Positions 45,370 to 61,600 of a stretch of 64,000 nt of DNA are shown in pieces. Below the pieces are notes generated by a model. The model saw only the letters and a program-made list of their open reading frames with translations, made no database searches and was not told the DNA's origin. Location: NCBI GenBank assembly GCA_020849535.1, contig JADLGB010000032.1:64613-128612 (forward strand), in the 5' to 3' direction. Position numbers and translations under genes: made by a program. This stretch comes from Candidatus Hydrogenedentota bacterium. GTDB taxonomy: Bacteria; Hydrogenedentota; Hydrogenedentia; Hydrogenedentales; SLHB01. Numbering within the stretch: position 1 is the first letter of the stretch; each line of letters starts with the position of its first letter.

Positions 45370-46743
45370 TCACATGATCTCCGTGAGAAGGCCCGCGCCT
45401 TTTTTCACGCTCTGTTCGCTTGGCAACACGCAGACATCAAGTCCCGCGGCGTTTGGTAGCTTCCCTTCCGGGTCGATACCCAGCAAGGTGTACATACTGC
45501 CGATGAGGTCGCGCGGGTGGACCGGGCGCTCCGCGACTTCGGAGCCTGTGGCGTCGGATGCGCCAACAACATGGCCCCCTTTGAAACCGCCGCCCGCCAC
45601 CACCGAAGTGAAGCATGTGCCGTAGTGGCCCCGCCCGCCGTTCCATGGAGCTTCCCATTGCACCTTCGGGGTGCGCCCGAACTCGCCTCCCCACCAGACG
45701 ATCGTGCTTTCCAACAGTCCGCGATCGGAGAGGTCCTGCAAAAGTGTTGCCATGGCGCGGTCCATTTCCGGGAGTTTTCGTTTCATGATCTCGAAGTGCT
45801 GCTTGTGGGTATCCCACCCCTTGTAGTTGATCGTGACGAAGGGCACCCCTTGCTCCACCAGGCGCCGCGCCACAAGACAACATTGGCCAAACGTGTTCTT
45901 GCCATACTGCTCACGCACGGCATCCGTCTCCTGCGAGAGGTCGAACAGCTTGCGCGCGTCGCCGAACATCATGCCGTAAGCGTTCTCTTCCGTCTTATCC
46001 ATTTCCTGGAAGCGCACATTCGACGGCATGGCTTTGCCAAGTGTGTCCAGTGTGTGAAGCAGATCGCGCCGGCTTCGCTGGCGTTCATCGGAAATCCCTT
46101 GTGCGATGATCCCTTCCACCGTAAACCGGGCTTGATTGGGATCGCCCCCCGTGACAAATGGCTTGTATCGCTGACCGAGGAGACCCGCTTCCGAGAAGCG
46201 GCCCTGCGCCTCAGTCAACACGACGTATGGCGGAACCAGCCCCTTGTACCCATGGTCGTACCCATTGAACAAGGACACAACCGCGCCCGCCGACGGATAG
46301 ACGAGCCTGTCGGGTTCCCGGCCGGTCTGCGTGATGTACGATGCTGTCTCGTGCGCGTTGACCCCATGCGTCATGCTGCGGATGATCGAGTACTTGTCGG
46401 CCTGCTGCGCGAGCATGGGAAGCAGCTCCCCAATACGTATTCCCTCCACGTTCGTGGCGATGGGTTTGTTCAGCGGACCGCAATAGTCTGACCCGGCGTC
46501 CGGTTTCGGATCGAAGGTGTCCAGATGCGAGGGTCCGCCCCACATCCAAATTTGAATAACCGACTTCGCCTTCGCCGGTTGTCCCGATGCGGCGTGTGCC
46601 AGCGCGCCGCTGCGCGCCGCAAGCGCCAGCCCGGCCATCCCCAAGAATCCCTGCTTCAGCGCATCGCGCCGCGTGATCGCTTGCCGCACTCGGTTTGCTG
46701 TCTTGAATGTCACGTTCATCTCGCTGTCCTTCGATGCTCGCAT
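45370..46743 (-). CDS. Tat-signal DUF1501-domain protein (sulfatase-fold)
   Basis: TRRDALKQGFLGMAGLALAA leader. WMWGGPSHLDTFDPKP, GWDTH and WWGGEFGRTP are hallmark DUF1501 motifs. Confidence 0.9.
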   Translation of the reverse strand: MRASKDSEMNVTFKTANRVRQAITRRDALKQGFLGMAGLALAARSGALAHAASGQPAKAKSVIQIWMWGGPSHLDTFDPKPDAGSDYCGPLNKPIATNVEGIRIGELLPMLAQQADKYSIIRSMTHGVNAHETASYITQTGREPDRLVYPSAGAVVSLFNGYDHGYKGLVPPYVVLTEAQGRFSEAGLLGQRYKPFVTGGDPNQARFTVEGIIAQGISDERQRSRRDLLHTLDTLGKAMPSNVRFQEMDKTEENAYGMMFGDARKLFDLSQETDAVREQYGKNTFGQCCLVARRLVEQGVPFVTINYKGWDTHKQHFEIMKRKLPEMDRAMATLLQDLSDRGLLESTIVWWGGEFGRTPKVQWEAPWNGGRGHYGTCFTSVVAGGGFKGGHVVGASDATGSEVAERPVHPRDLIGSMYTLLGIDPEGKLPNAAGLDVCVLPSEQSVKKGAGLLTEIM

Positions 46744-46759
46744 GGACTGCTCAGTGATT

Positions 46760-48310
46760 CTAATGCCGGTAGAGGAATTCTTTGGTGTTGATCAGTGCCC
46801 ATGCCAGGTCGCACAGGGCCTGGTCGCGTTTGAGTCCGCTGTTCTCCACATAGCTGAGCGCGGCCGCCGTCTCGCTCTCCGTGGGCTTTCGCGACAGGAT
46901 GGTCAGATACACGGACTGCACGATGCCCCGTTGATCTCCCTTGCCGCCTCCGGTCGCCAACCGCGAGCGCACACCTTGCTCGATCTTCCGCTGAATCTGA
47001 GTCGAGTTGAGCAGGTGCAACCGCTGCGGATCGGTCATCGCGTTTGTGCGCTCGGACTCGAAGCCGGTGTCCCGCGTAGGCCGGCCAAACATCTCGAGAA
47101 ACGGGCTTGTGATACTGCCATCCGCCAGCGCGATCGACCGCTGGTACTCAGGGATATACGAGAAAGGCTCCGGCACGGCGCTCGAGTACGTTTCTCTGGT
47201 TCCGGTGATTCCACACACGGCGTCGATCAGTGCCTCGGCATCTATTCGCCGCACCGGGTAACAAGCGAACAGCGTGTCCGCCTCCGGAGCTTCGCTGCGT
47301 GCAATGGAAGACCGTTGGTACGTGTGAGAATTCAGGATGATGAGGTACAAGTGCCGAAGGTCATACCCTGACCGTATCAATGCATCCTCCAGGTAAGAAA
47401 GCAGCGCGGGATTGGATGGCGGATTGTCCGGCCGGATGTCATCCGCTTCGTGAATGATGCCGCGACCCAGCAGCCACGACCACACGCGGTTCGCCATATT
47501 CCGCGCAAACCAGGGGTTGTCCGCGGCAAGCAGCCAATCCGCGAACAGGTCACGCGGGTCCTTGTCGGGGTCGAGTTGCACCGTGACCCCGTCCGGCAGC
47601 ATCGCGCTCATGGCCTCGACCGGCGCGGGGTCGAGATACACGATCTCCTCTTTCCATTCCGCCGTGGATTTGTAGGCCACGCGCGAGAAGAACTTCGCCA
47701 TGCCCTCCCGTTGCTCCGGCGTCCAGTGCTCGATTCTCGCTCCCATGAAGGGCAGGGCGACCGCCCCCGCGATTCCCGCCGGCTCCCTGTTCTGAACGGC
47801 ACGATAAAAGTTCACCGGTGGCACGCGGAAGTTACTGCCGCTGGAGGTCAGCATCTCGCGCACAAACTCATCGCAGGGTTTGTTGTCACGGATGGACTCG
47901 CGGATCCAGCGGTGATAGCACTGCACCGCATTGGGCCAGAGGTTGATCGGAAACTCCGATTTGACCCGCAGGATGTCGCACCACTTCAATGCCCAGTAAT
48001 CGGCAAACTCCTGCCGCTGCAACAAGTCCTCGATCAGCGTGTACCGCTTGTCCGGTGTGGAGTCCTCCATGAAGTGCTCGACTTCATTAGGTGTGGGGAG
48101 GGTCCCGATGACGTCCAGGTAGATGCGCCTTACAAACACCTCATCCGAGCACAGGGGCGCGGCTTCGATCCCGTGCTTGGAGAGCTCGACGAGGACCAGC
48201 GTGTCGATGGCACTTGATGAGGCGCCCGAGTCCGCCATCTCGAAAGGGGATATCAGTTCCTGCCCCGCGGCCAGACTAGCCAATACCCCCAACAGCAATG
48301 CACTTACCAC
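46760..48310 (-). CDS. DUF1549/DUF1553-domain protein (no cytochrome domain seen)
   Basis: DUF1549-like FVRRIYLDVIGTLPTPNEVEHF...EFADYWALKWCDILR. DUF1553-like RRIDAEALIDAVCGITG...DPQRLHLLNS. The ORF is open to 48484, but that start would sit inside the ars promoter -35. A GTG at 48310 preceded by GGGGGAG gives MVSALLLGVLASLAAG, so I prefer it. The start remains uncertain. Confidence 0.8.
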   Translation of the reverse strand: MVSALLLGVLASLAAGQELISPFEMADSGASSSAIDTLVLVELSKHGIEAAPLCSDEVFVRRIYLDVIGTLPTPNEVEHFMEDSTPDKRYTLIEDLLQRQEFADYWALKWCDILRVKSEFPINLWPNAVQCYHRWIRESIRDNKPCDEFVREMLTSSGSNFRVPPVNFYRAVQNREPAGIAGAVALPFMGARIEHWTPEQREGMAKFFSRVAYKSTAEWKEEIVYLDPAPVEAMSAMLPDGVTVQLDPDKDPRDLFADWLLAADNPWFARNMANRVWSWLLGRGIIHEADDIRPDNPPSNPALLSYLEDALIRSGYDLRHLYLIILNSHTYQRSSIARSEAPEADTLFACYPVRRIDAEALIDAVCGITGTRETYSSAVPEPFSYIPEYQRSIALADGSITSPFLEMFGRPTRDTGFESERTNAMTDPQRLHLLNSTQIQRKIEQGVRSRLATGGGKGDQRGIVQSVYLTILSRKPTESETAAALSYVENSGLKRDQALCDLAWALINTKEFLYRH

Positions 48311-48477
48311 GACAAACTCCCCCGGAGAGGCGATTCCCCCGACGCCAGTGCGCTCTCGCGGACCTGTGAGGGCCGGGCAAAGCCACACGCGGGGTCGATC
48401 CTGTTCCTCGTTACATGGAACACCATGTGCGACGCGTGGTTCCGGCGGCCGCGCCCTGGACAAGAAATTGCGAAGCC

Positions 48478-48506
48478 TTGACAAAAGATAAGTAATTGGC
48501 TAAAAT
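48478..48506 (+). promoter_or_regulatory. sigma70-type promoter of the ars island: TTGACA - 17 nt - TAAAAT
   Basis: Consensus -35 TTGACA (48478..48483), exactly 17-nt spacer, then -10 TAAAAT (48501..48506). This is an AT-rich patch in an otherwise GC-rich context. AGGGGG RBS and the arsR ATG follow at 48521/48532. Confidence 0.55.
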
Positions 48507-48511
48507 GCCAA
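48496..48511. promoter_or_regulatory. ArsR operator candidate: inverted repeat TTGGC-TAAAAT-GCCAA overlapping the -10
   Basis: Perfect 5-bp arms flank the -10 hexamer. ArsR/SmtB repressors typically bind dyads overlapping their own promoter. Confidence 0.4.
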
Positions 48512-48531
48512 GTAGGCAACAGGGGGTGCCA

Positions 48532-48852
48532 ATGGACCCACAACTTCAGTCCCGTTATCAGGCCCGCGCCAAGGTCATAAAAGCGTTGGCCCACCCGACT
48601 CGCCTGTTCATCGTGGACCAACTCGCAGATCAGGAGAAATGCGTCTGCGAGCTGACGGAGATGATAGGCGCCGATATGTCCACGGTTTCCAAACATTTAA
48701 GTGTGCTTAAGGACGCAGGGGTCGTTTCCGACGAGAAGCGCGGGCTCATGGTCTTCTACCGGCTTCGAGTGCCGTGTATCCTGAACCTTTTTGGCTGCAT
48801 CGAGGGGGTGCTGAAGGCGAACGCGGAAGCACAACTTGCCGCGATGAAGTAG
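48532..48852 (+). CDS. arsR: ArsR/SmtB-family repressor, type with CVC site in the DNA-binding helix region
   Basis: KALAHPTRLFIVDQLADQEKCVCELTEMIGADMSTVSKHLSVLKDAG is a winged HTH with C-V-C, as in R773-type ArsR. I chose ATG 48532 (RBS AGGGGG) because the track start at 48496 is a TTG inside the promoter. Confidence 0.85.
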   Translation: MDPQLQSRYQARAKVIKALAHPTRLFIVDQLADQEKCVCELTEMIGADMSTVSKHLSVLKDAGVVSDEKRGLMVFYRLRVPCILNLFGCIEGVLKANAEAQLAAMK

Positions 48853-48899: not shown

Positions 48900-50213
48900 A
48901 TGGATTGGCTTATGAACTGGAAATCGGAATGGAAGATCCTCGCGGCCATTGTCGCCGTCTTCTTCGCATGCTTTTACCTCCCGGTGGGCCTTCCCCGCTT
49001 CGACAACGCCGTGATGGAAGCGCTCCACCTGGTCAAGTGGTACGCGCGCGAGCATGTGGTGCTGTGCCTGATACCCGCCTTCTTCATCGCGGGCGCAATA
49101 TCGGTTTTCATCAGTCAGGCATCGGTCATGAAGTACCTCGGCGCCGGGGCGAACAAGGTCCTTGCCTACGCCGTCGCGTCTGTGTCGGGGACGATTCTGG
49201 CCGTGTGCTCCTGCACCGTCCTTCCGCTGTTCGGGGGTATTTGGCGTAGGGGCGCCGGTTTGGGACCGGCAACAGCCTTCCTGTACTCCGGTCCGGCGAT
49301 CAACGTCCTCGCCATCGTTCTCACGGCTCGTATCCTGGGAATGGAGCTAGGTATCGCGAGGGCCGTGGGGGCGATAGCCTTCAGCGTGATCATCGGATTG
49401 TTAATGCACGTGATCTTCCGCAAGGAAGAGGAAGAGAAGGCCCTTGCCCAGGCGGCCATGCCCGTCCCCGAAGTAACGCGCCCATTGTGGCAGACGGCCA
49501 CATACTTCGCGTCCATGGTGGCCATTCTGGTCTTCTCCAACTGGGGGAAGCCGGAGACCGACACCGGGCTTTGGTACGCCATTTACAGTGCCAAATGGAT
49601 CATCACGTCCATCTTCGCCGTGGGATTCGGCGTCATCCTGACGGTTTGGTTCCGACTGCCATGGTGGAAAGTGGTACTTGGCGCTGTTCCGGCGATTATT
49701 CTTGCGGCACTCTTTCCTCACGAACCCATATTGGCCTTTGCCGCAGCATCCGTGGGGCTCTCCATTATTACCAGCACCAGCGACGGGGAAATGGGTGAGT
49801 GGTTCGGTGTGACGTGGGGGTTTGCCAAGCAGATCCTCCCGCTCCTACTCGGTGGTGTGTTGGTTGCGGGCGCGTTGCTCGGCAGACCCGGCATGGAAGG
49901 CCTGATCCCCAATGCCTGGGTCACCTGGGCGGTGGGCGGAAACTCGCTGATGTCGAACTTCCTTGCGGCCCTGATTGGCGCGTTCATGTACTTCGCCACC
50001 TTGACGGAGGTGCCAATTCTGCAAGGACTCATCGGATCCGGCATGGGTAAAGGTCCTGCCCTGGCCCTATTGCTTGCGGGCCCCGCGCTTTCTCTGCCGA
50101 ATATGCTCGTGCTGAACAGCATCATGGGGTTCAAAAAGACGTTCGTATACTGCTCGTTGGTTGTGGTCATGGCTACGATGAGCGGGATCTTGTATGGAGC
50201 CATCCGGGGCTGA
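48900..50213 (+). CDS. PF03773-type (DUF318/ArsP-like) permease with intramembrane Cys pair
   Basis: Multi-TM protein from the internal ATG 48900 (MDWLMNWKSEWKILAAIVAVFF). SGTILAVCSCTVLPLF motif. The classical partnership with a small Trx-like gene occurs immediately downstream. Confidence 0.8.
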   Translation: MDWLMNWKSEWKILAAIVAVFFACFYLPVGLPRFDNAVMEALHLVKWYAREHVVLCLIPAFFIAGAISVFISQASVMKYLGAGANKVLAYAVASVSGTILAVCSCTVLPLFGGIWRRGAGLGPATAFLYSGPAINVLAIVLTARILGMELGIARAVGAIAFSVIIGLLMHVIFRKEEEEKALAQAAMPVPEVTRPLWQTATYFASMVAILVFSNWGKPETDTGLWYAIYSAKWIITSIFAVGFGVILTVWFRLPWWKVVLGAVPAIILAALFPHEPILAFAAASVGLSIITSTSDGEMGEWFGVTWGFAKQILPLLLGGVLVAGALLGRPGMEGLIPNAWVTWAVGGNSLMSNFLAALIGAFMYFATLTEVPILQGLIGSGMGKGPALALLLAGPALSLPNMLVLNSIMGFKKTFVYCSLVVVMATMSGILYGAIRG

Positions 50214-50305: not shown

Positions 50306-50539
50306 ATGAAGACACTTCAGGTTTTGGGTCCGGGATGTTGGAAGTGCAAGAAGCTGGCCGAAAACACGGAAGCGGCGGCGAAGGAGCTGGGGATCGAGTA
50401 CGACCTCGTCAAGATCACCGAGATCAACGCCATCATGGGATTCGGTGTAATGATGACACCGGCGCTTGTGGTTGATGGTGCGGTCAGGATATCCGGCAAA
50501 GTGCCGTCGGTCGATGAAATCAAGGCGTTGTTACAGTAA
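50306..50539 (+). CDS. small thioredoxin-fold protein (redox-active disulfide protein 2 type)
   Basis: 77 aa: MKTLQVLGPGCWKCKKL...GVMMTPALVVDGAVRISGKVPSVDEIKALL. CxxC plus the cis-Pro context of this family. GGAGGAAGAG RBS. Confidence 0.85.
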   Translation: MKTLQVLGPGCWKCKKLAENTEAAAKELGIEYDLVKITEINAIMGFGVMMTPALVVDGAVRISGKVPSVDEIKALLQ

Positions 50540-50574: not shown

Positions 50575-50973
50575 ATGTCCACTCAAGCATCGTGCAATTG
50601 TGGGGATTCGGGCTACAACTTGGTGTTCGCATGTTCGGGTGCGGCCGATGTAGGCGCAATCAGCGACCGTGCCGCCCGCAAACTCGCGGCGGAAAAGGTG
50701 GCGGGTATGTGCTGTACGGCCGCTATCGCCGCGAGAATCCCGGAGATACTGCAGAAGACGAAAGGCGCAGCCGCGCTGGTAGTTTTGGACGGATGTGAGA
50801 AGGAATGCGCGCGCAAGGTTCTCGAGGAAGCCGGGTTCACAGCGCATGCCTACGTGCAACTGGTCCGGGCCGGCATGGAAAAAGGAAAGACTCCGGCCTC
50901 AGAAGAAAACACCGCGAAAGCGGCGGCTTGGGCTACCGAAGCGCTTGCAAATGCAGGAAGCGGCAGAGCCTAG
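50575..50973 (+). CDS. DGC-domain Cys-rich putative metal-binding protein
   Basis: NLVFACSGAADVGAISDRAARKLA...GMCCTAAIAA...LVVLDGCEKECARKVLEEAG follows the DGC domain pattern (ACSG..., DGC..C). AAGGAG RBS. Confidence 0.7.
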   Translation: MSTQASCNCGDSGYNLVFACSGAADVGAISDRAARKLAAEKVAGMCCTAAIAARIPEILQKTKGAAALVVLDGCEKECARKVLEEAGFTAHAYVQLVRAGMEKGKTPASEENTAKAAAWATEALANAGSGRA

Positions 50974-51052: not shown

Positions 51053-52429
51053 ATGATGGGAACCAATGATTCGAGCGCACAAACAGGGGCGAGCACCCTC
51101 CAAAAGATCCTGACGGTCGTAGTCCTCCTCATTGCCATTGGGGCGGTGGTTTATGTCAAGCGCATGAACAAAGAGAGTGGCAGCGCCGTTGTCCCCGCGC
51201 CGGAAGCCTCCAATTCTCGCGCGAACGCCACTCCACCTGCCTCGCCGGATATCGCGCCGCTCTCCAAGGACGTTCCGCCCACAAAATCGGGGCTGCCCCG
51301 GCTCGTAGACGTGGGGGCGGGACAGTGCATTCCCTGCAAGTTGATGGCTCCCATTCTCGAAGATCTCCGCCGTGAATGCGCCGACAAGCTGGAGGTTGAG
51401 TTCATCGATGTGTGGAAGGACCCGGACGCCGGCGAGGGATACGGAGTTCAGACAATACCCACGCAGATCTTCTATGACGCCACGGGGCAGGAGCGTTTTC
51501 GGCACCAGGGCTTTCTCGGCAAAGAGGACATCCTCGCAAAATGGGAGGAACTCGGCGTGGACGTGGGTGGTTCCGCGCAGGCCACCCCGGCCTTCAGCCG
51601 ATGGGAACCCGCACAACCCGATACCCGTCCCAAGGACCAGGTCTGCTATCTGTGCGACGGCGACATCAACGCCAAAACGCGCACCATCTTGAATACGCCA
51701 GGAGGCGATGTGCTTTTCTGCTCTACTCACTGCTATCTCATCACTCACGCGAGTCTCACCGACCCGGAGAAATCTCATGAGAAAGCCTCGACCACGGACT
51801 GGGCCACGGGCGCTCTTCATCCGGTGACGGCTTCCACCTATCTGTACGGAATGGACTCCCAAGGCCGGCCCACTGTCAGAGCATTTGCGGACTCCGCAGC
51901 CGCCACGGCGGAGCAGCAGAACTTTGGCGGTAACATCCTCAACTGGCGGGCCTTTGAGCGGAAAGAGTTGAGCACGCGCTGCGCGTTCTGCGATCGGCCG
52001 GTCTACCCCGAGGACGCATCCGTGGTACACGTGGACGGTGGCATTCAGACGTGGGCCTGCTGTGTGATGTGCGGGCTTGGAGTTGTTGCGCGAACCGGCA
52101 GCGACATCGACCTCGAGGCGAAAGATGCGCTCACAGGCGAAGCCCTTCGTGTAGTGACGTACGAAGGACACGTCGCTGTGCTGGAGCCTTCCACTATGGT
52201 TGCGTGGGCGGGCGCCACAAAGGATGCCGCAGGAAAGATATCTTCCACCGGGTGTTTCAAGCAGGCGTTCTTTGCCACGGACGAGCATCTGAGACAGTGG
52301 GTCGAGCAACACCCAACCGCCACCGGTCAGCGCGTGACGATTCGTCAAGCGCTGGAAGCGAAGTTGAAGCTAACTCCCGAGCAAATCAGTAAGGCCTGCA
52401 AGATAGGGGAGTGCACGCCCAAACAATGA
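51053..52429 (+). CDS. membrane-anchored thioredoxin fused to two TRASH-type Cys4 modules, each followed by a ~100-aa NosL/MerB-like(?) segment
   Basis: Internal ATG 51053 (GGGAGAGG upstream). TM helix ILTVVVLLIAIGAVVYV. Trx fold with GQCIPCKLMAP...IPTQIFY. CYLC-x21-CSTHC and CAFC-x20-CCVMC fit the TRASH spacing C-x2-C-x19-22-C-x3-C. C-terminal CKIGEC. The N-terminal 86 codons of the track ORF overlap the DGC gene and look non-coding. Confidence 0.7.
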   Translation: MMGTNDSSAQTGASTLQKILTVVVLLIAIGAVVYVKRMNKESGSAVVPAPEASNSRANATPPASPDIAPLSKDVPPTKSGLPRLVDVGAGQCIPCKLMAPILEDLRRECADKLEVEFIDVWKDPDAGEGYGVQTIPTQIFYDATGQERFRHQGFLGKEDILAKWEELGVDVGGSAQATPAFSRWEPAQPDTRPKDQVCYLCDGDINAKTRTILNTPGGDVLFCSTHCYLITHASLTDPEKSHEKASTTDWATGALHPVTASTYLYGMDSQGRPTVRAFADSAAATAEQQNFGGNILNWRAFERKELSTRCAFCDRPVYPEDASVVHVDGGIQTWACCVMCGLGVVARTGSDIDLEAKDALTGEALRVVTYEGHVAVLEPSTMVAWAGATKDAAGKISSTGCFKQAFFATDEHLRQWVEQHPTATGQRVTIRQALEAKLKLTPEQISKACKIGECTPKQ

Positions 52430-52451: not shown

Positions 52452-53150
52452 ATGGAACGCCTCTTCACCGCATTGAATCACGCAGTTGAGGGCAGCGCAT
52501 CGGTGGCCCTCACGGCAGCCTTTGCCTGGGGCGTGCTCAGCATCGTGCTGAGCCCATGTCACCTTGCGAGCATCCCCTTAATCATTGGATTCATCGGCCA
52601 GCAAGGGCGTATGGGAATGCGATATGCGTTCCTCCTGTCATCACTGCTTGCCTGCGGCATCTTGGTCACCATCGCATTGGTAGGATTCGCCACGGCCGCT
52701 GCAGGGCGCATGCTGGGCGACGTGGGACCGTATGCCAACTACGCCATCGCCCTCCTCTTCTTTCTGGTCGGCTTGCACTTGCTTGGTGTCATCCCCATGC
52801 CATGGTCCGGCCCCGGCTCGGTGACCATGCGCCGGAAAGGCGCATTGGCTGCCCTGTTTCTGGGCCTGGTATTTGGGATTGCTCTGGGTCCCTGCACGTT
52901 CGCCTACATGGCTCCGATGCTGGGCGTGACATTTGCTCTGGCGCGAACCGACCTTATCTACGGTGTTGCTCTGCTCCTAGCATACGGCCTGGGACATTGT
53001 TCCGTTATCGTTTTTGCGGGTACGTTCACTGAGGTTGTGCAGCGTTACTTGAACTGGACCGAAGTGTCCAAGGGGGCAAGAACCGTCAAGAATATCTGTG
53101 GAATCCTGGTGATATTAGGCGGCCTATGGCTGATTTACACGGCGCCATGA
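52452..53150 (+). CDS. ccdA: CcdA/DsbD-family transmembrane thiol-disulfide electron transporter
   Basis: Six-TM protein with the two conserved membrane cysteines, LSPCHLASIPL and ALGPCTFAYMAP. Confidence 0.85.
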   Translation: MERLFTALNHAVEGSASVALTAAFAWGVLSIVLSPCHLASIPLIIGFIGQQGRMGMRYAFLLSSLLACGILVTIALVGFATAAAGRMLGDVGPYANYAIALLFFLVGLHLLGVIPMPWSGPGSVTMRRKGALAALFLGLVFGIALGPCTFAYMAPMLGVTFALARTDLIYGVALLLAYGLGHCSVIVFAGTFTEVVQRYLNWTEVSKGARTVKNICGILVILGGLWLIYTAP

Positions 53151-53276: not shown

Positions 53277-53654
53277 ATGGAAACTTCAGCCGCCATTGAG
53301 GTGTTGTCCAGTCTGGCCCAGGAAACTCGCATGGAGATATTCCGTCTTCTGGTGCGGCAGGGTCCAAGCGGCATGGCCGCCGGTGAAATCGCCTCAACGC
53401 TGAATGTGCCCAGCCCCACACTCTCTTTTCACCTCGGCTTGCTTACGCGGTCCGGCTTGTTGAGGTGTCGGCGCGATGGGCGATCGCTTGTCTACGCCGT
53501 TAATTTCGATGTCATGCGGGATTTGCTCCTCTTTCTGACAAAGGACTGCTGCCAGGGGCGGCCCGAACTGTGCGCGGGGATTCCGTTGGCGGCCACTTGC
53601 ACGGCCGATGCATCGGGCAAGTCCCGGAACAAGGCAAAGGTGAGACATGGCTGA
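53277..53654 (+). CDS. arsR: ArsR/SmtB-family repressor, type with C-terminal CC-x5-C As(III) site
   Basis: LAQETRMEIFRLLVRQGPSGMAAGEIASTLNVPSPTLSFHLGLLTRSGLL is the winged HTH. The C-terminal KDCCQGRPELC has Cys at n, n+1 and n+7, as in the Acidithiobacillus-type ArsR. Overlaps arsC by 8 nt. Confidence 0.85.
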   Translation: METSAAIEVLSSLAQETRMEIFRLLVRQGPSGMAAGEIASTLNVPSPTLSFHLGLLTRSGLLRCRRDGRSLVYAVNFDVMRDLLLFLTKDCCQGRPELCAGIPLAATCTADASGKSRNKAKVRHG

Positions 53655-54093
53655 GGATTCGGTCAAGTTGAAGGTTCTATTTCTGTGTACCGGAAACTCC
53701 TGCCGGAGCCAAATGGCGGAAGGCTGGGCACGTGCCTTGAAGGGAGACTTCCTGGAAGCGCATTCCGCGGGTATCGAGACTCATGGACTGAATCCCCATG
53801 CCGTAACGGTCATGAAGGAGGCGGGTGTCGATATATCCACGCAGCGCTCCAAGAACGTCCGCGAACTGATGGACACGGAATTCGACTATGTGATCACCGT
53901 GTGTGCCAACGCACACGAGACCTGCCCAGTCTTTCCGGGCAAGGCTCGGGTTGTCCACGTAGGTTTTGACGACCCTCCGCGGTTGGCGGCCTCGGCAAAT
54001 ACGGAAGAGGAAGCAATGAATTGTTACCGCAGGGTGCGGGATGAGATCAGGGCTTTTGTGGAGACGCTCCCCGGAGGTCTGGAATGGCGCTGA
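53647..54093 (+). CDS. arsC: arsenate reductase, LMW-PTPase/thioredoxin-coupled type
   Basis: VLFLCTGNSCRSQMAEGW P-loop (C-x5-R-S). Downstream Cys pair in VCANAHETCP. GFDDP. Confidence 0.9.
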   Translation: MAEDSVKLKVLFLCTGNSCRSQMAEGWARALKGDFLEAHSAGIETHGLNPHAVTVMKEAGVDISTQRSKNVRELMDTEFDYVITVCANAHETCPVFPGKARVVHVGFDDPPRLAASANTEEEAMNCYRRVRDEIRAFVETLPGGLEWR

Positions 54094-54262
54094 GCGCCGG
54101 GCGTCACGTACTGCTGCGTGCGAGGATCTGAAGGCCGCCGCCAAATTCCCAAATTGATGCAAGTGGAGAGGATTTTTCCCCGGTATGAAGAATCGCATTG
54201 ACCTCGGAGAAGCGCAGCACTCAGGCAGGGAGGACTCGCGGCAGCACTGTTCTTCGAAGCGG

Positions 54263-55318
54263 ATGAACTCCTTCGAGCGCTATCTCTCCCTGTGGGTACT
54301 CATGTGCATGGCCGTGGGTATCCTGCTGGGCAAACTCGTTCCTGGCGTAGTCGCGACTCTCAGCAGGCTCGAATTCGGCCAAGGCTCACAAGTCAATATC
54401 CCCATTGCCGTGCTGATCTGGATGATGATCTACCCCATGATGCTCAAGATCGATTTTGGCGGCTTGGCAGGAGTTACGAAGCGCCCCAAGGGGCTTATGG
54501 TGACCCTGATTGTCAATTGGGTGGTCAAACCATTCAGCATGGCCTTCTTCGCGTGGGTGTTTATCCAGTACTTCTTCTCCGCATGGATCGATCCGGAGAC
54601 TGCCAAGGATTACACGGCGGGCCTGATAATACTGGCCGCCGCCCCGTGCACGGCCATGGTTTTCGTGTGGAGCTACCTCACGGACGGCGATCCGGCCTAC
54701 ACCCTGGTGCAAGTGGCGGTGAACGACCTGATCATGCTCGTCGCGTTTGCGCCAATCGTGATGTTCCTCTGTGGTGTTGCGGATGTCGTCGTGCCTTCCA
54801 AGGTTCTTGTCACATCCGTGGTGGTCTTCATCGTCATTCCCCTTGCCGCAGGTTGGCTCACGCGCACTGGCTTGTTAAAGGCGTTCGGGAGCGATTGGTT
54901 CGAGCAGCGGTTTTTGCCTCGCTTTCATCCGGTCACCGTCGTGGCGCTGCTGTTGACGCTGGTTTTGATTTTCGCTTTCCAGGCGGAGAATCTGACCACC
55001 AAGTGGTTTGCCGTTCTTCTCCTGGTTGTCCCTATCCTGGTGCAGGTCTATTTCAACTCCACTCTTACCTATCTTCTGATGCGCACGTTCAAGGTCCCCC
55101 ACAACGTCGCTTCGCCCGGCGCGCTCATCGGCGCCAGCAACTTCTTTGAACTCGCCGTGGCCGTCGCCATCACGCTCTTCGGTCCCGGGTCCGGCGCGGC
55201 ACTTGCCTGCGTAGTGGGAGTGCTGGTGGAAGTTCCCGTGATGCTCTCCGTCTGCAATGTCTGCAACCGCTCACGTGTATGGTACGGGAAGGCGCTTCCA
55301 CCCGCTGAATCGAGGTAG
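54263..55318 (+). CDS. acr3: ACR3-family arsenite efflux permease
   Basis: MNSFERYLSLWVLMCMAVGILLGK...IPIAVLIWMMIYPMMLKIDF...LAAAPCTAMVFVWS is a typical ACR3 N-terminus with the conserved Cys-containing motif. Internal ATG 54263 chosen. Confidence 0.9.
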   Translation: MNSFERYLSLWVLMCMAVGILLGKLVPGVVATLSRLEFGQGSQVNIPIAVLIWMMIYPMMLKIDFGGLAGVTKRPKGLMVTLIVNWVVKPFSMAFFAWVFIQYFFSAWIDPETAKDYTAGLIILAAAPCTAMVFVWSYLTDGDPAYTLVQVAVNDLIMLVAFAPIVMFLCGVADVVVPSKVLVTSVVVFIVIPLAAGWLTRTGLLKAFGSDWFEQRFLPRFHPVTVVALLLTLVLIFAFQAENLTTKWFAVLLLVVPILVQVYFNSTLTYLLMRTFKVPHNVASPGALIGASNFFELAVAVAITLFGPGSGAALACVVGVLVEVPVMLSVCNVCNRSRVWYGKALPPAESR

Positions 55319-55924: not shown

Positions 55925-57529
55925 ATGAGCGTTCGAACTGCCTCCACATCCTTCGCAAGTGCACTCTTCATCGCGTTGCTTTTCGCGGTGCCCGCGATAG
56001 CGCAAGTCAGTATGCACAAGGTGGAAATTGTCGGTGCGCGCGGAATCCTCCACCGTGCGCCGCAGACCACGGAGGATCCAGTCACCCCGAGCCCCGGCGA
56101 GCAGAAAAACAAGGAGGTTGCGGAACGGCTCGACAAGGCGGGTCTGCTCTATACCGGCAAGGTCGTGGTCGACAAGGATTCAGCCATGCTGAAACCGCCC
56201 GCGGTCGTGGCGGAATTCGCTGGCACTGGCTACACCCTCGCCAAGGAACCGCCAACAATTGAGTTCGGTGTCATCCCGGTGACGCCGCTGTTTCTGAACG
56301 AGTCCCCCGTCAAATCCAAATCGGACAAATCGAACGAGCCGACTCCTTGGGCCAATTGGGGGCAGGCGGCCATCGACACGCGCACGGGAAAGTTCTATGG
56401 ATCCATCGGAGACGATGGCAAGTACGACGCCCGCATTCTGCTCGTGGAATACGATCCCGCAACGAAGATCATCAAGTGCCTGCCAGAAGTGAACAAGCTC
56501 CTGGGCCGCACGAAAACGCACTTCGGCGATGGCAAGATTCACGGCTGGCTGGACTGGTATCAAAGCAAGGATTTGGACACGCCCCACCTGTGGTTCTGCA
56601 CCTACTGGACCAAATACACGGAACCTGACGACGAAGACTTCGAGACCGGTTATGACGGCGGCCACGTCATGAGCTGCGATGTGATCACCGGCGACATGGT
56701 CGACTACGGGGCTCCGGTGAAGCGCTCCGCTTGGCCCTACCACCGGGTGGACACCAAACGCGGCACGCTATATGCCGTCGGTATGTTCGGCGAGTTCTTG
56801 GCATGGGACATCAATAGTCAGACGACGCTGTGGGCGGGCTATCTTCCCAAGGGCATGGGTTGGTGGGAACGGGCGCTCCTGCTCGACGAGACCACCGGCA
56901 TGGTATACACGTCCAACCGCGACACCGAAGCGGATCCCGAACACCATCTCATCAAGTACGATCCACACCGGAACCGTTTCACGAAACTCGAATGCCATGT
57001 GCCCAAGACGACGGGCCAGGCATCGGGCAAGGGCCAACCCGGCGCGTACAGCGCCATGCGCGCCCAGACGCGCCACCGCGGCCCTGACGGCCTGTTCTGG
57101 TGCGTGACCAACGGTGGGCAGTTGTTCACCTTCGATCCCGACAAGAAAATCATAAAAGACAAGGGACCCAACTGGCCCGGCGAGCAGCGCTACACCGCCT
57201 CCATGGAACGCAGTCCCGGCGGGCGCTATCTCTATTACATGCCGGGCGCGCACGGACACGGCTATTCGGATGGATCGCCCCTCGTGCAATTCGACACGCA
57301 AACCGGCACGCTGAAGGTGCTCGCGTTCTTTTTCCCCTACTACTATGAGAAGTACGGGTACACCGCCGGCGGCACCTTCTCCATCGTGCTGGATGAACGC
57401 GGCGAGAGCCTGTTCATCGTGTGGAACGGCGCCTTCATAGAGAACAGTGGCGACGTCGCGGGCGGAGACACCTTCGGCCAGTGCGCGATCTCGCTCGTGC
57501 ATATCCCCGAATCGGAACGGCAGGAATGA
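55925..57529 (+). CDS. secreted hypothetical protein (beta-propeller-like composition; no family recognised)
   Basis: Signal MSVRTASTSFASALFIALLFAVPAIAQ. Coding-like composition throughout. Its stop overlaps the start of the next gene (ATGA). Confidence 0.65.
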   Translation: MSVRTASTSFASALFIALLFAVPAIAQVSMHKVEIVGARGILHRAPQTTEDPVTPSPGEQKNKEVAERLDKAGLLYTGKVVVDKDSAMLKPPAVVAEFAGTGYTLAKEPPTIEFGVIPVTPLFLNESPVKSKSDKSNEPTPWANWGQAAIDTRTGKFYGSIGDDGKYDARILLVEYDPATKIIKCLPEVNKLLGRTKTHFGDGKIHGWLDWYQSKDLDTPHLWFCTYWTKYTEPDDEDFETGYDGGHVMSCDVITGDMVDYGAPVKRSAWPYHRVDTKRGTLYAVGMFGEFLAWDINSQTTLWAGYLPKGMGWWERALLLDETTGMVYTSNRDTEADPEHHLIKYDPHRNRFTKLECHVPKTTGQASGKGQPGAYSAMRAQTRHRGPDGLFWCVTNGGQLFTFDPDKKIIKDKGPNWPGEQRYTASMERSPGGRYLYYMPGAHGHGYSDGSPLVQFDTQTGTLKVLAFFFPYYYEKYGYTAGGTFSIVLDERGESLFIVWNGAFIENSGDVAGGDTFGQCAISLVHIPESERQE

Positions 57530-58617
57530 GCGGCCAGGAGAACGGCGTGGTACGAATCGGTGTGGTCGGCGGTGGCACGTACGGTGAAAGTCACCTGTCC
57601 ACATTCAAGGACTTGGAGCAAAGCGGCAAGGTGCAGCTTGCCGCCCTCGCCGAAATGAACGACGAGCGTCGCGAGCAGCGGCGTCAGCAGTTTGATATTC
57701 CGGTGTACAAGAGCCATGTGGACATGCTGGATGCCGAACGTCTGGATGGCGTAACCGTGGCCACACCCGATCATCTGCACCTCGGCATCGCGTTGGACGT
57801 TCTCGAGCGCGGTATGCACTGCATGGTCGAGAAGCCACTCGATGTGACCACTGAAGGCTGCCGGAAGCTCATTGCGCTGGCGGCGCAGAAACCGCTCTTG
57901 CTTCAGGTGGATTTCCACAAGCGCTTCGACCCCTACCACATCGAGATGCGCGAGTCCTTCCTGGAAGGCAAATTCGGTGAGATCGAATACGGCTACGCCT
58001 GGATGGAGGATCAGTTATTCGTCCCCGTGAGCATGCTGCGCGCATGGTCCGAACACAGCTCGCCGGTCTGGTTTCTCGGCGTGCACATGTACGATCTCGC
58101 GCGGTGGATTATGGGCTCGCCCGCGCCCGCCGTGGTGTACGCCACGGGCTCGCGCAAGAAACTCAAGTCCATGGGCATTGACTGTCCGGATGCCGTGCAA
58201 GCACACGTGACCTTCAGCAACGGCGCCTGCATCACGTTTCACAATTCCTGGATACTGCCCGACCAGTATGAGGCGGTCGTACACCAAGGCATCAAGCTTG
58301 TCGGCACGGAAGGGATCTTCGAGTGCGACTCTCAGTATCGTGGGGGCCGCGGTTGCCTTAAGGGAGAGAAGATGCGCACTTGGAACCTCGGCATCAAGTA
58401 CCGGGAGCGCGACAAGCGGAACCGGCTTCGCCATCGAGGCTACTTCTACTCATCCATCGCGGATTTCGCCGAGAATCTCCTTTTTCTGAAAGAGAGCGGC
58501 ACACTCGCGCAATTAGACGGACTCTACCCCTCGGGTGTGGACGGTCTCGCCGCCACGCAGATCGCCTGTGCCGCCGAAGAAAGCATGCGGTCCGGGCGGC
58601 CTATCGAGATTACCTGA
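57526..58617 (+). CDS. cytoplasmic Gfo/Idh/MocA family oxidoreductase
   Basis: MSGQENGVVRIGVVGGGTYGESH Rossmann N-terminus without a signal. VATPDHLH and MVEKPL motifs. Start chosen at the ATGA overlap; the track start at 57421 lies inside the previous gene. Confidence 0.85.
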   Translation: MSGQENGVVRIGVVGGGTYGESHLSTFKDLEQSGKVQLAALAEMNDERREQRRQQFDIPVYKSHVDMLDAERLDGVTVATPDHLHLGIALDVLERGMHCMVEKPLDVTTEGCRKLIALAAQKPLLLQVDFHKRFDPYHIEMRESFLEGKFGEIEYGYAWMEDQLFVPVSMLRAWSEHSSPVWFLGVHMYDLARWIMGSPAPAVVYATGSRKKLKSMGIDCPDAVQAHVTFSNGACITFHNSWILPDQYEAVVHQGIKLVGTEGIFECDSQYRGGRGCLKGEKMRTWNLGIKYRERDKRNRLRHRGYFYSSIADFAENLLFLKESGTLAQLDGLYPSGVDGLAATQIACAAEESMRSGRPIEIT

Positions 58618-58632
58618 TTCGCCGCTTGGCCA

Positions 58633-61600
58633 CTATTTCGATTCCACCGGCCTGTTCACCTCGATGCGATTGTTCTCCTCCAGAATCTCGAGTACGAGGT
58701 CGTTCTCGTCAAGGATGATGGCCCGTCCCTTGGAACTGCCTTGTTGCGTAAACGCGACCTCAAAGCGTTGCGGAGCGAGATCAATGCTTGGATCCCCCAA
58801 GGCATCGACGGAAACAGTCTCCAATGTCGCACCTTTCTTGTCGACAAGGGCCACGGTAAAGGGCCCCGCCGTGACCGCGCCGATATTGTGCACCACGGCG
58901 TGAATCGCGCCGTCCGTGTCTTTGCGAATGTCGCGTGTGCCGATGGCGAGGTCCGGGAGCGGACCCATCGGCGCGGCGGCTTCTACCTGTTCGATGACCA
59001 CGGCCAAATTCTGACGCGGTGCAGCCGTTACCGGGATCGTGGAGAAACGCCGCAAGTCGCGAACTTCATCGTGAAGAACAGCAGAGGCGTTGCCTTTGGG
59101 GGCATCGATCGTGCCATCGTCGTTCTCGTCCACCCCGATGCGCACGCTGTACCTGCCCGCGGCCAGCCGCCAAACTCGCATGGTGGCCTCTACAGGTTTC
59201 CCGGTGAAGTTGTACAGGTTTACGACGAGCCTCTTGTCATCCGCGTAGGACACCAGGCGCGCCAAATCGACGGTGTCCACTCCTTCCCAACTCACCGCGA
59301 TGCCTATCGGATACGGTTCAACGCGTCCTTGCACCCGCCCGCCCAAGGCGGAGGCTATCAGCACGTCGCGTCCGATACCCCGCTGATTGTCGGTGTGAAT
59401 CATACCTTCGGTCAACGCAAAGAGGGCCGGTTCATCGGTGGCGTGGACGACATGCATCATCTGCCGCGCGATATCCTCGCGGTCCGTGATCTGGTGGGGA
59501 GCCGGTGGTGGTGTCAACCCCCAATACGCGCGCAGATGGGTCAGTGAATAATTGCGAATCTCCGCATCGACTTGTTCGACCAGGGTGGCGCCGTTTTTCT
59601 CGCGATCTTCAGCGTTTCCAGTGAGCGGCGGTAATCCCTTCTCCGCTCGTTTTGCATCCACCTCGCGAATCCGTTCCGAATAGCGCTGGGACGTGCGCAT
59701 CTCGCGCTCAACCACATAGGGATCGCCCAGCGCAAAGGCTAGCATGAGGCCCCTACTGCCAATGAAGTCCGTGATGTGCAGCGGGTCGATGGGCCAGATG
59801 TCGCAATACCCGTCGTAGAAGATTCCCATCTCTTCGAGACCTTCGTAGTACCGCAACCAGGAGCGGCGGGCCCGCTCATTACCCAGGAGCGGGATTCCCG
59901 CATACCCGAGCGGGATGAAGCAATCATCGTTGGAGCCACCCCAAAACATACCGTCCGCGCGCTGGCGCGAGATGATCCATTGCGTTGCGGTGTCGTTCAA
60001 TCGGTGGAGTTCCCGTTCCCAAACCGCCCAGGCAGGCGCTCCACCCGAATCCTCCACGGGCACGGGCGTCCGCACATCACCGGTGTCGGCCGCGCCGGGC
60101 CACGTCCGGTTCAGCACCAGCTCGCGATAGATGTTCGCGATGCGATCTTCCGGCGCATGACGAAGCACCGCCAGCGGGGAATACGCCATGTCATACGGGC
60201 CGCCGAAATTGCTCCAATTCTGAAGTGAAATGACCTCACCCGTGAAGCGCCAGGGACGGTAGTTATACTCCTTGATGTATTGCACCCGCCCGGACACCAT
60301 TTCATGCTTGACGTACGCCTCCAAGGTGCGCTTGGGATCGGCGGACTTCACGACAGAAAGAGTCGAAGGAGAGGCTTCATCACCCACAACCAGATTGCCT
60401 CCTGCCAGGAACGTGAGTTCCACCCACAGACGGTCTTCACTCGCGAGCATCAGGTCGATGATGTCCAGGCTGATATCCAATGATTGCGGCGACCCTGTGG
60501 CGGGGTAATCAACGCGCACCCACGTCTGGGCCCAGATTCGCCCGGGATTTCCGGGATCGCGCAATCGGATGCGGACATGGTCGGCCAGTGTGGAGGGCAC
60601 GATGCTCAGGCCCAAACGCACAGCGTCAACAGGCATGTCCTCGTTCAGATCCGGCCCCAGGACATGGATGGACTCCATGGGCCGAAGCGGGATCTCGGTC
60701 CTATCCGGCAGGTCCAGTCCCGCTGTTACTGCCCGTCGATCGCGTGCCGCCATGAGCTTGTTCAGCGCGGGCCCATAGCGCTCGATGGATGTGCTTGGCA
60801 CCTCGCCTAACAGATACCATGTGCGGTCCTCTCCCTTCTTCCTTTCAGAGACCGGGGTGAGTTGCTCCCACAACTGGATCTCGTGGATCCGCGTATCGCC
60901 GCTCAGGGGGAGCTTCGCGCTGCCTTGCAGGTCAGAGGGAGACCCATAACTCTTCACAAGGGGCACGCGTAGGGCCGTTGCCCCGGCGAGGTCAATGCGT
61001 TTCGAACAGAAGAACGAAGGTTCCTCGCTGTCCGGAAGCAAGGTGTTACTCTCTCCGAATTCGCCTGGGGTTCCGGTCATCAGATTGAGATCATCGAGAA
61101 TGCCTTCAAACGAAATGAACTGCGGTTGTTCTCCCGGCTCCAATTCGAGTTCGATCCGCTCGCCATGGAAATCAGCATCCCCGAGGATGAACGTGAACAA
61201 GCGATACGGGTGAGGCCACGCCAATTCGTACCGGCCGTCCATGACCCACCACGCCGGGATCAGCTCGTCGCGGCATTCCTTCACGCGCGTCTGCTTGAGA
61301 TGTAAAGGCGCTGCACTTGCGCTTACCGTAGGAACTTCCTGCCGGCCGGGGTCACCGTATGCCGCCAGGATCCGCTCGCTCGCGTCCTCTGGCAACGGCA
61401 GTGGGGGAGATGCGGAGGCGCCGATGGTGTTTGTCTCGAAAAGCGACGCAACCTGCGCATCCTCCAACGCGACGTCAAACATACAGATCTCATCGTAGAA
61501 GGACTCGGGAAGAAAAGGACTGAAGAGTCCCGGTTGCGTGGTCTCCCACCAGGCATCCTGCCCCCATGTGGACCCAACGACAATGCCGTTGTGGAACAAT

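Follow-up and report, generated by a model that had tools for sequence, protein, structure and literature searches.

A membrane-anchored thioredoxin fused to NosL- and MerB-like modules is a conserved component of ars operons in mostly uncultured bacteria

A stretch of 64,000 nucleotides from a Candidatus Hydrogenedentota bacterium (contig JADLGB010000032.1, assembly GCA_020849535.1), which we call the window throughout, carries an arsenic resistance (ars) operon that includes a gene at positions 51053-52429 on the plus strand. Its product, referred to here as the fusion protein, consists of a transmembrane (TM) helix, a thioredoxin domain with the active site CIPC, a first module with a NosL-like fold and a second with a MerB-like fold, each bearing the four cysteines (Cys4) of a TRASH domain, and a tail with the motif CKIGEC. 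The family to which it belongs is a conserved component of ars operons in mostly uncultured bacteria. We tentatively propose that the fusion protein is an exported thiol protein, recharged by CcdA, which binds trivalent arsenicals, organic ones among them, at the site equivalent to the metal sites of MerB and NosL. This proposal could well be right, but we do not hold it firmly, and several alternatives are weighed below.

A preliminary description of the gene, made from the sequence alone, knew of no characterized ars component with this architecture. That statement stands insofar as no experimental characterization was found: our literature searches yielded no paper that describes or tests a family of TM-thioredoxin-NosL/MerB fusions, and no NCBIfam model captures it. 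It has to be amended in two respects, as the relationship of TRASH domains to the NosL/MerB fold was published in 2014 and 2016 (PMC4999995) and databases already name such proteins automatically, the public annotations of homologues being "organomercurial lyase", "thioredoxin" or "NosL". The fusion protein is a variant of known folds and relays, itself uncharacterized in the literature found.

Domain architecture and conserved cysteines

The open reading frame is free of stop codons, encodes 458 amino acids and is preceded by a Shine-Dalgarno-like GGGAGA, 4 nt 5' of the ATG. A longer, GTG-started reading frame from position 50795 was considered and rejected, as it overlaps the upstream DGC gene and finds no support in the N-termini of homologues. 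The parts of the protein are, in order:

51107-51157 (+): signal-anchor TM helix, residues 19-35, hydrophobic, within a helix of the AlphaFold2 (AF2) model that spans residues 15-41
51281-51556 (+): thioredoxin domain, residues 77-168, with C92-I-P-C95
51635-51967 (+): module 1, NosL-like fold, residues 195-305, with an intact TRASH Cys4 set (C198, C201, C223, C227) and the invariant H226
51968-52372 (+): module 2, MerB-like fold, residues 306-440, with a TRASH Cys4 set (C310, C313, C336, C340) and in addition C337 and C401
52373-52426 (+): C-terminal tail with the invariant pair C449-K-I-G-E-C454, proposed to act as a shuttle

This layout agrees with what had been read from the translation, namely one N-terminal TM helix, a thioredoxin fold with CIPC, two Cys4 sets with TRASH spacing and a terminal CKIGEC. 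The thioredoxin domain is matched by Pfam PF00085 over residues 83-162 (E 2.4e-9) and has its cis-proline motif at I135-P136. The first Cys4 set is spaced C198-x2-C201-x21-C223-x3-C227, as described; the second was correctly placed in the TRASH range, but its long spacer, given as x20, is in fact x22 (C310-x2-C313-x22-C336-x3-C340). Both modules fit the signature C-x2-C-x19-22-C-x3-C, which is said to be the consensus spacing that Ettema and colleagues gave for TRASH domains in 2003.

In an alignment of 121 homologues with 50-68% identity to the fusion protein, all 14 cysteines and H226 are either invariant or at least 90% conserved. The eight TRASH cysteines, C337, C401 and both cysteines of CKIGEC belong to the invariant ones, and the tail motif reads CK[IL]GEC in 64 of 67 homologues; in the AF2 model the predicted local distance difference test (pLDDT) drops to 76-89 in this tail. 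Since conservation of the cysteines is far above chance, we consider the cysteine sets to be selected features rather than chance clusters. Selenocysteine codons were found at none of the conserved cysteine positions in 91 loci.

Relationship to NosL, MerB and treble-clef zinc fingers

The AF2 model of the full-length fusion protein has a pLDDT of 89.5 and a predicted template modeling score (pTM) of 0.77, and a model of residues 185-458 has values of 93.6 and 0.88. In Foldseek searches of the latter against the PDB, the only significant matches were to MerB and MerB2 (E 1.5e-7 to 1e-4) and to NosL (7og7, E 1.3e-3, target TM 0.58). Weak treble-clef matches were found to the ribosomal proteins L24e and Rlp24, with a root-mean-square deviation of 1.6-2.3 over 32-40 columns for L24e.

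In sequence searches, module 2 was matched by the MerB family of Pfam (PF03243, residues 324-436, E 1e-19) with 71.2 bits, against a gathering cut-off of 27, and a profile search of the PDB matched MerB2 (5c17, E 2e-11). The NosL family (PF05573) scores 14.6-18.7 bits over residues 208-300 of the window protein, against a gathering cut-off of 24; it matches 23 of 24 individual module-1 sequences at E ≤ 0.1 (best 4e-8), and a precomputed match exists in 34 of 120 homologues among those listed. A profile of module 1, built from residues 190-306 with distant relatives added, matched the NosL structure 7osf with an E-value of 4.7e-4 and aligned 7og7 along the whole module. The same profile matched archaeal and eukaryotic L24e over the Cys4 part, and some module-1 sequences matched Pfam models of the TRASH clan (zf-FLZ, zf-FCS, ATPase-cat_bd, TRASH_HVO_1752_C). 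The resemblance to TRASH and NosL/MerB proteins that had been suspected from the translation is thus borne out by profile and structure searches alike.

DSSP assigns β-hairpins to residues 211-215/218-222 and 323-327/331-335 of the AF2 models, followed by helices at 225-234 and 338-348. The secondary structure around each Cys4 set is that of a treble clef, in which the CxxC lies in the knuckle, a β-hairpin follows and the N-terminus of the helix bears the last two ligands. With C-x2-C-x21/22-C-x3-C on a knuckle-hairpin-helix unit, the modules resemble TRASH domains and zinc fingers of the treble-clef type (Ettema 2003; Kaur and Subramanian 2014, 2016).

A weak internal duplication, also proposed in the preliminary description, is partly upheld. 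Both modules match families of the NosL/MerB fold independently of each other, but the direct sequence support is weak: hhalign compares module 1 and module 2 with an E-value of 0.0017 and a probability of 16%, confident over the Cys4 stretch alone, and beyond it the two are collinear at permissive settings without reaching significance. The NosL/MerB fold has been proposed to derive from duplicated TRASH treble clefs, its core being no longer stabilized by zinc (PMC4999995). In contrast to this published core, the family described here keeps the full Cys4 set in both modules, and to judge from its motifs it looks like a living intermediate between TRASH domains and the NosL/MerB fold.

A compact family linked to ars genes and CcdA

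At least 263 of 185,579 species-representative genomes that were scanned encode a relative of the fusion protein. Taxonomy and the clustering of neighboring genes refer to the 80 best loci, and neighbor counts to the 53 loci with adequate flanks. Nearly all of the 80 loci come from metagenome-assembled genomes (MAGs), which belong to the Hydrogenedentota, Planctomycetota (Pirellulales, Sedimentisphaerales, Phycisphaerae), Verrucomicrobiota, Nitrospiraceae and Omnitrophota. Only 17 representatives among 1.84 billion sequences, clustered at 50%, match the tandem module at E ≤ 1e-30, which indicates a compact and specific family. Three loci are assigned to outlying taxa (L070 to the Bathyarchaeia, L022 to the Bifidobacteriaceae and L038 to the Alphaproteobacteria) and could reflect binning errors or horizontal transfer.

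The genes found next to members of the family are:

CcdA: 53 of 53 loci, on the same strand and at most 3.6 kb downstream in 62 of 63
ArsR: 51 of 53 loci
ArsE-type mini-thioredoxin: 51 of 53 loci, on the same strand and at most 2 kb upstream in 62 of 69
ArsP: 39 of 53 loci
DGC protein: 29 of 53 loci
ArsC: 27 of 53 loci
Acr3: 27 of 53 loci
FMN reductase with a twin-arginine translocation (Tat) signal: 26 of 53 loci
ArsM: 25 of 53 loci (315 bits to NF008823)
ArsF-family protein (NF040494): 14 of 53 loci

At least one of ArsC, Acr3 and ArsM is present in 39 of the 53 loci. The motifs of the neighbors are conserved as well, with LSPC in 47 of 47 and LGPC in 43 of 47 CcdA proteins, C-V-C in all 42 clustered ArsR proteins and CSC in 53 of 55 ArsP homologues. 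Among the 30 largest neighbor clusters of the 80 loci there were no mer, cop, cus, czc or nos families and none for cytochrome c maturation (ccm, ccs, res). It is ars genes and CcdA to which the homologues are linked, in line with the context first noted for the window gene; links to mer, cop or nos genes or to genes for cytochrome c maturation were not seen. A role of the CcdA pair in cytochrome c maturation finds no support, ccm, ccs and res being absent from the conserved neighbors.

Some loci contain additional components. In 12-14 related loci (such as L060 6256-7227, L020, L025, L029 and L033) an extra gene lies between the fusion gene and ccdA, whose product starts with a signal peptide and a SurA-like portion and ends in a thioredoxin with CRPC. 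The FMN_red-family flavoproteins with a Tat-type signal peptide and the ArsF-family proteins belong to neighbor clusters c5 and c13 (for example L052 4354-5043 and L021 4-495). In the 14 loci with an ArsF-family protein (annotated as "nitrophenyl compound nitroreductase subunit"), this lipoprotein-like protein is encoded directly upstream of the fusion gene. The exported FMN_red and ArsF-family proteins would point to further exported redox chemistry, possibly on aromatic arsenicals. Finally, the slot between mini-thioredoxin and fusion gene that DGC occupies in the window is filled by an F420_oxidored protein resembling pyrroline-5-carboxylate reductase in L092 (7124-7900) and in cluster c18 (for example L054 6320-7120).

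Relatives without a thioredoxin domain also exist. Two of them (L081 6001-6840 and L082 5622-6533) are lipoproteins with "CCPHC" and "PCC" motifs in both modules and lie outside ars contexts; in L082 a gene for an FtsX/MacB-type permease follows, and close to the L081 gene lie a transposase-like gene and another copy, which is truncated. A metagenome scan for such lipoproteins yielded only two full-length loci, which lack ars genes and are uninformative on function.

Export and orientation in the membrane

Across the family, the flank before the TM helix is short (median 6 residues, for example MKTxPK), and the net charge is +1.65 on the N-terminal and +0.5 on the C-terminal side of the helix, which favors an orientation with the N-terminus inside. 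An acidic linker rich in Ala, Pro and Ser follows the helix. Tandem-module relatives that lack the thioredoxin domain begin with signal peptides or lipoboxes (P0151, P0157, P0162). The best PDB match of the thioredoxin domain is a thioredoxin of Bacteroides fragilis (3hxs/3hyp, E 8e-12) named TrxP, which we take to be periplasmic, and the domain is 47% identical to that of the SurA-like protein with a signal peptide in related loci. Since the relatives without thioredoxin are exported, the N-terminus resembles a signal anchor and the thioredoxin domain is matched by TrxP and by a signal-peptide protein, we regard export of the fusion protein as well, though indirectly, supported. The whole soluble part is predicted to face the periplasm, held by a type-II anchor.

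A cytoplasmic orientation, suggested by a KRxxK motif after the TM helix, is unlikely in view of the balanced numbers of lysine and arginine on the two sides, the net charge favoring an N-in orientation and the signal peptides or lipoboxes of the relatives. We also judge it unlikely that the Cys4 motifs hold Fe-S clusters: exported proteins loaded with a cofactor normally use the Tat pathway, and the N-terminus of the fusion protein appears to be a Sec-type signal anchor.

Residues of the predicted metal sites

In an alignment of module 2 to MerB2 (5c17), C336 corresponds to Trp101, C337 to Cys102, C340 to Ser105 and C401 to the conserved second cysteine. We take the same positions in MerB to be Trp95, Cys96, Asp99 and Cys159. 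Of these, Cys96, Asp99 and Cys159 are essential, strictly conserved catalytic residues of MerB (PMC8261052). Both Hg-binding cysteine positions are kept in the fusion protein (C337 and C401), and the position of Asp99 is occupied by the invariant C340, which doubles as the fourth ligand position of the TRASH set.

MerB and MerB2 (PF03243; 3F0O, 5C17) thus resemble module 2 in sequence and as its top structural match, and share both Hg-binding cysteine positions with it. They differ in that Trp95 and Asp99 of MerB are replaced by C336 and C340, that the upstream CxxC knuckle, kept in the fusion protein, is lost in MerB and that the fusion protein lacks the N-terminal domain of MerB. Further, MerB is cytosolic and occurs with MerR, MerA and MerT/P, whereas the fusion protein is predicted to be exported and has no mer context. 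It scores 29.8 bits with the MerB equivalog model NF033555 (cut-off 200) and 30.5 bits with NF009710 (cut-off 193). A genuine MerB (EC 4.99.1.2) or a mercury system can be rejected on the grounds of the Asp99-to-Cys exchange, scores of about 30 instead of about 200 bits and the absence of mer genes from the 30 largest neighbor clusters.

NosL of Shewanella denitrificans binds a structural Zn on CxxC...CxxxD and next to it Cu(I) on the strictly conserved Cys62, Met64 and Met145 (PMC8457098). When NosL is aligned to module 1, Cys62 corresponds to C201, Met64 to G203 and Met145 to G271, so that module 1 has no ligand at the cargo position. G271 falls at about the position of C401 in module 2, as judged from the approximate, collinear alignment of the modules, and of the "PCC" motif in the lipoprotein relatives.

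With NosL (7OG7; NosDFYL 7OSF/7ZNQ) the fusion protein shares the NosL/MerB fold, CxxC...Cxxx(D/C) at equal positions and, as predicted, export and a membrane tether. The two differ in that the fusion protein has two tandem modules, a thioredoxin domain and a TM anchor, whereas NosL is a lipoprotein; that the fourth Zn-ligand position is Cys in the former and Asp in the latter; that the Cu ligands Met64 and Met145 are missing from the fusion protein, the residues at the cargo positions of module 2 being cysteines; and that one occurs with ars genes, the other with nos genes (NosZ, NosDFY). A genuine NosL, or a role in copper/N2O reductase maturation, was rejected for lack of Met64, Met145 and, among the 30 largest neighbor clusters, a nos context.

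By analogy with NosL, module 1 is predicted to be a module that binds only Zn and has a structural or partner-binding role. Module 2 would combine a Zn site with C337/C401 as a candidate cargo pair, and the CKIGEC tail may contribute a third ligand or serve as a disulfide shuttle. A further comparison, of nine sequences, covered distant relatives with 22-43% identity. None of the nine has lost C310, C313, C336 or C340, even at 22-32% identity, while P0130 lacks both C337 and C401 and P0132 lacks C401; retention of the TRASH cysteines where the other two are lost fits a structural site with a separate functional pair. In P0128, another distant relative, only one of the four module-1 cysteines is left.

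The ars operon of the window

The gene order on the plus strand is ArsR1-ArsP-mini-thioredoxin-DGC-fusion protein-CcdA-ArsR2-ArsC-Acr3, and the placement of the gene between a DGC protein and CcdA inside an ars operon, noted earlier from the translations, is confirmed by the matches of its neighbors:

48478-48506 (+): candidate sigma-70-like promoter, TTGACA-17-TAAAAT, 11 of 12 consensus matches, a consensus match only
48496-48852 (+): ArsR/SmtB repressor 1 (HTH_5 E 6.6e-16; NF033788 90.7 bits), with CVC in E-K-C-V-C-E-L
48900-50213 (+): ArsP_1-family permease (PF03773 E 4.9e-70), with a cysteine pair in A-V-C-S-C-T-V-L-P
50306-50539 (+): cytoplasmic mini-thioredoxin of 77 residues, MTH895/ArsE family (Thioredoxin_3; TIGR00412 106.8 bits, cut-off 62)
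50575-50973 (+): Cys-rich protein with a DGC domain (PF08859 E 5.3e-25)
52452-53150 (+): membrane transporter of thiol electrons of the CcdA/DsbD_TM type (NCBIfam DsbD E 4.5e-5, residues 15-222), with L-S-P-C-H-L and L-G-P-C-T-F
53292-53654 (+): ArsR/SmtB repressor 2, with a C-terminal CC-x6-C (DCCQGRPELC) read from the translation
53647-54093 (+): ArsC of the thioredoxin-coupled, low-molecular-weight protein tyrosine phosphatase type (TIGR02691 152 bits, below the equivalog cut-off of 174.3; LMWPc E 1.9e-20)
54185-55318 (+): arsenite efflux permease Acr3 (TIGR00832 377 bits, cut-off 282.8)

The ArsR1 reading frame as listed begins with a TTG that lies within the promoter candidate; its true start is probably a downstream methionine (MDPQLQ...) at about 48532. 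The permease scores 107-109 bits with the efflux families SO_0444 and SaoE (107 for the latter), below their cut-offs. A Pfam scan of the CcdA-like protein gave no family even at an E-value of 10, and a sequence search against the PDB gave no match either; we nevertheless assign it to CcdA because of its match to NCBIfam DsbD, its LSPC and LGPC motifs and the presence of PF02683 (DsbD_TM) in the corresponding gene beside the homologue P0028. The Pfam miss is probably due to the bias filter of HMMER acting on a TM protein or to a difference between model versions.

No convincing internal terminators were found in the operon. Its two ArsR proteins differ in the type of cysteine site, CVC in helix 3 of ArsR1 and a C-terminal CC-x6-C in ArsR2, which hints at two regulatory units, one comprising arsR1, arsP, the mini-thioredoxin, DGC, the fusion gene and ccdA, the other arsR2, arsC and acr3, with a gap of 141 nt between them. 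The closest related locus, L010 (Hydrogenedentota SJ204, JADLCA010000135.1), is 95% identical in ArsR1 and ArsP, 88% in Acr3, 85% in ArsC and 83% in ArsR2, whereas the genes in the middle are much more diverged (DGC 49%, fusion protein 57%, CcdA 76%, TrxE 80%). This mosaic of identities suggests that the central cassette was exchanged by recombination. The operon has a slightly lower GC content, 0.583, than the rest of the window, 0.603. Its flanks (42982-48484 and 55925-62229) are typical of Planctomycetota-like genomes and appear unrelated to the ars cluster; the genes there are for a DUF1501-like protein that has a twin-arginine motif, a secreted protein of very large size and a further large protein in which domains are repeated.

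A proposed exported thiol protein for trivalent arsenicals

Under the reading we prefer, electrons would pass from the cytoplasmic mini-thioredoxin of the ArsE family, encoded two genes upstream, through the CcdA/DsbD_TM protein to C92/C95 of the thioredoxin domain, which would keep the cysteines of both NosL/MerB modules reduced or recycle them. Mini-thioredoxin, DsbD_TM and fused thioredoxin would together form a complete relay, resembling a split DsbD, that ends at the NosL/MerB modules. The TRASH site of each module would hold structural Zn(II), by analogy with Shewanella NosL. The predicted cargo site would be made up of C337, which adjoins a Zn ligand and matches MerB Cys96 in position, and C401, at the position of MerB Cys159 and roughly that of NosL Met145; the flexible CKIGEC tail would offer a third thiol or shuttle disulfides to the thioredoxin domain. 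A pocket of two thiols would suit methylarsenite or aromatic As(III), and one completed by a cysteine of the tail would suit arsenite. As the operon is controlled by ArsR and contains ArsP, Acr3 and ArsC, we consider a trivalent arsenical the most likely cargo. The fusion protein would thus be an extracytoplasmic thiol binder or chaperone for arsenicals that are exported by the permeases or come in from outside, and not a lyase of the MerB type.

Two precedents support binding as the function: NosL, with a structural Zn and an adjacent site for soft cargo, and the Scs/CueP system, in which a DsbD-like and thioredoxin-like envelope system, induced by copper, acts jointly with CueP, a chaperone of the periplasm (PMC10907172). 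ScsB/ScsC/ScsD-CueP resembles the present system as a metal-induced reductase system with a periplasmic metallochaperone. The exported thioredoxins that depend on CcdA or DsbD (ResA, CcmG, TlpA, TrxP) resemble it in that a DsbD_TM gene adjoins one for a membrane-anchored, exported thioredoxin. Unlike in ResA- and Scs-type systems, reductase and presumed metal modules are joined in one polypeptide, the system has a cytoplasmic mini-thioredoxin of its own, the inducer is presumably arsenic and there is no cytochrome c maturation context.

Several points weigh against this proposal. A stoichiometric binder is a weak mechanism of resistance unless its cargo is handed on, and no outer-membrane partner is evident; the presence of a dedicated electron relay in nearly all loci would agree with reductive catalysis too. 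The context is not uniform, as 14 of the 53 loci have no ArsC, Acr3 or ArsM within their flanks, and the permease family PF03773 includes exporters of Cu and Zn too. As to topology, lysine and arginine are, across the family, equally frequent on the two sides of the helix (2.2 and 2.3), so the positive-inside rule alone leaves the orientation undecided. Lastly, the division into four Zn ligands and two cargo ligands is drawn from motif logic and from patterns in distant relatives.

Alternative functions

That the fusion protein is an enzyme, which processes arsenicals in the periplasm by means of thiols rather than merely binding them, is the main alternative, unlikely in our estimate but to be taken seriously. 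It might reduce pentavalent arsenicals by a cascade like that of ArsC, running from C337/C401 over C449/C454 and the CIPC of the thioredoxin to CcdA, or it might be an oxygen-independent lyase for C-As or other carbon-metalloid bonds that reuses the MerB pocket. The relay is inherited with the fusion protein almost universally (CcdA in all 53 loci, the ArsE-type thioredoxin in 51), which suggests turnover more than occasional repair. The layout of an active cysteine pair, a flexible tail pair and a thioredoxin also resembles the relay of thioredoxin-coupled ArsC, as known from the mechanism of pI258 ArsC. Yet reduction of As(V) or pentavalent methylarsenical, MAs(V), outside the cell would increase toxicity, the operon already has a cytoplasmic ArsC and no oxyanion-binding motif has been demonstrated. 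For an enzyme also speaks the MerB fold with both Hg-binding cysteine positions kept; however, the proton donor of MerB, Asp99, is replaced by an invariant cysteine that is also a TRASH ligand, and the known protonolysis mechanism is not conserved.

The surroundings speak for such chemistry as well, being rich in genes for organoarsenicals (ArsP in 39, the Tat-signal FMN reductase in 26, ArsM in 25 and ArsF-family proteins in 14 of the 53 loci). Isolate names (AnMBR) indicate that several of the MAGs originate in anaerobic bioreactors or digesters, which strengthens the case for turnover. A parallel is offered by the SAO system of Clostridioides difficile and other anaerobes (Haft 2022 preprint), which unites the MerB-like SaoL, the ArsP-family exporter SaoE and the thioredoxin-like SaoT. 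It resembles the present loci in combining a MerB-like protein, a PF03773 permease and a small thioredoxin-like protein outside a mer operon, with a proposed role in organometallic chemistry. SaoL differs in being a cytosolic CU selenoprotein that is fused neither to thioredoxin nor to NosL, whereas the fusion proteins have no selenocysteine codons at their conserved cysteines, and SAO, unlike the loci described here, comes without ars genes and without CcdA. A more specific proposal makes the fusion protein the catalytic terminus of a system that works outside the cytoplasm and without oxygen. At a MerB-derived thiol site, which the relay of ArsE-type thioredoxin, CcdA and fused thioredoxin supplies with electrons, it would cleave C-As bonds or reduce pentavalent methyl or aromatic arsenicals; this has in our view only a slender chance of being correct.

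An improbable third reading places the function in the thioredoxin domain. Induced by arsenic, it would repair envelope thiols by reducing or de-arsenylating periplasmic proteins blocked by As(III), such as apocytochromes with CxxCH, the modules serving as scaffold or binding clients and partners. Reduction of periplasmic clients is the classical task of CcdA-thioredoxin pairs, with Scs as a metal-induced analogue, and CcdA/thioredoxin genes are known from ars operons without any MerB-like domain (Castillo and Saier); the core that is conserved can therefore consist of this redox pair. The lack of a cargo-position ligand in module 1 and the further exported SurA-like thioredoxin protein of some loci would fit as well. 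Scaffolding, however, leaves the invariance of C337, C401 and the CKIGEC pair in the 121 homologues unexplained, the NosL/MerB fold is a metal-handling fold in every characterized case, and the existence of exported tandem-module relatives without a thioredoxin implies that a separate function resides in the modules.

Least probable of the readings considered is that the fusion protein chaperones or scavenges a thiophilic metal other than arsenic (Cu(I), Hg(II), Cd or Zn), in the manner of NosL or of copper binding by MerB2, and is merely co-regulated with the ars genes. NosL itself chaperones Cu(I) and has a Zn/Cu site, regulators of the ArsR/SmtB type respond to many metals and the window permease scores equally well with the SO_0444 family of Cu/Zn efflux. 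MerB2 naturally has Ser at the position of Asp99, and Wahba and colleagues are said to have reported in 2016 that MerB2 and MerB D99S bind copper. A change of one residue at the metal site of MerB can yield a copper-binding protein (Haft preprint). Against this stand the absence of cop, cus, mer, czc and nos from the 30 largest neighbor clusters, the replacement of the NosL Cu ligands Met64 and Met145 by G203 and G271, cysteine motifs of the arsenite type in both regulators (CVC and CC-x6-C) and the presence of ArsC, Acr3 or ArsM in 39 of the 53 loci.

Implications

For sequence annotation, the automatic name "organomercurial lyase" can inflate merB counts in metagenomic surveys of mercury resistance, an error that the missing Asp and the ars context allow one to correct. 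For the evolution of the fold, a full TRASH Cys4 set within a NosL/MerB fold would be a natural intermediate on the proposed route from a zinc finger to MerB.

If the fusion protein were an enzyme, anaerobic degradation or activation of organoarsenicals would become directly testable. It could then fill the place of an anaerobic equivalent to ArsI, the O2-dependent lyase, or of a reductase for MAs(V), neither of which is known to us.

Arsenic resistance as known so far has been described almost wholly as cytoplasmic chemistry and efflux. To this picture, an ars component that is conserved, exported and supplied with electrons across the membrane by a relay of its own would add an extracytoplasmic step, be it capture, hand-off or transformation of arsenicals. 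Such a step would be of importance for diderm bacteria, which are dominant in anoxic sediments, in groundwater and in digesters.

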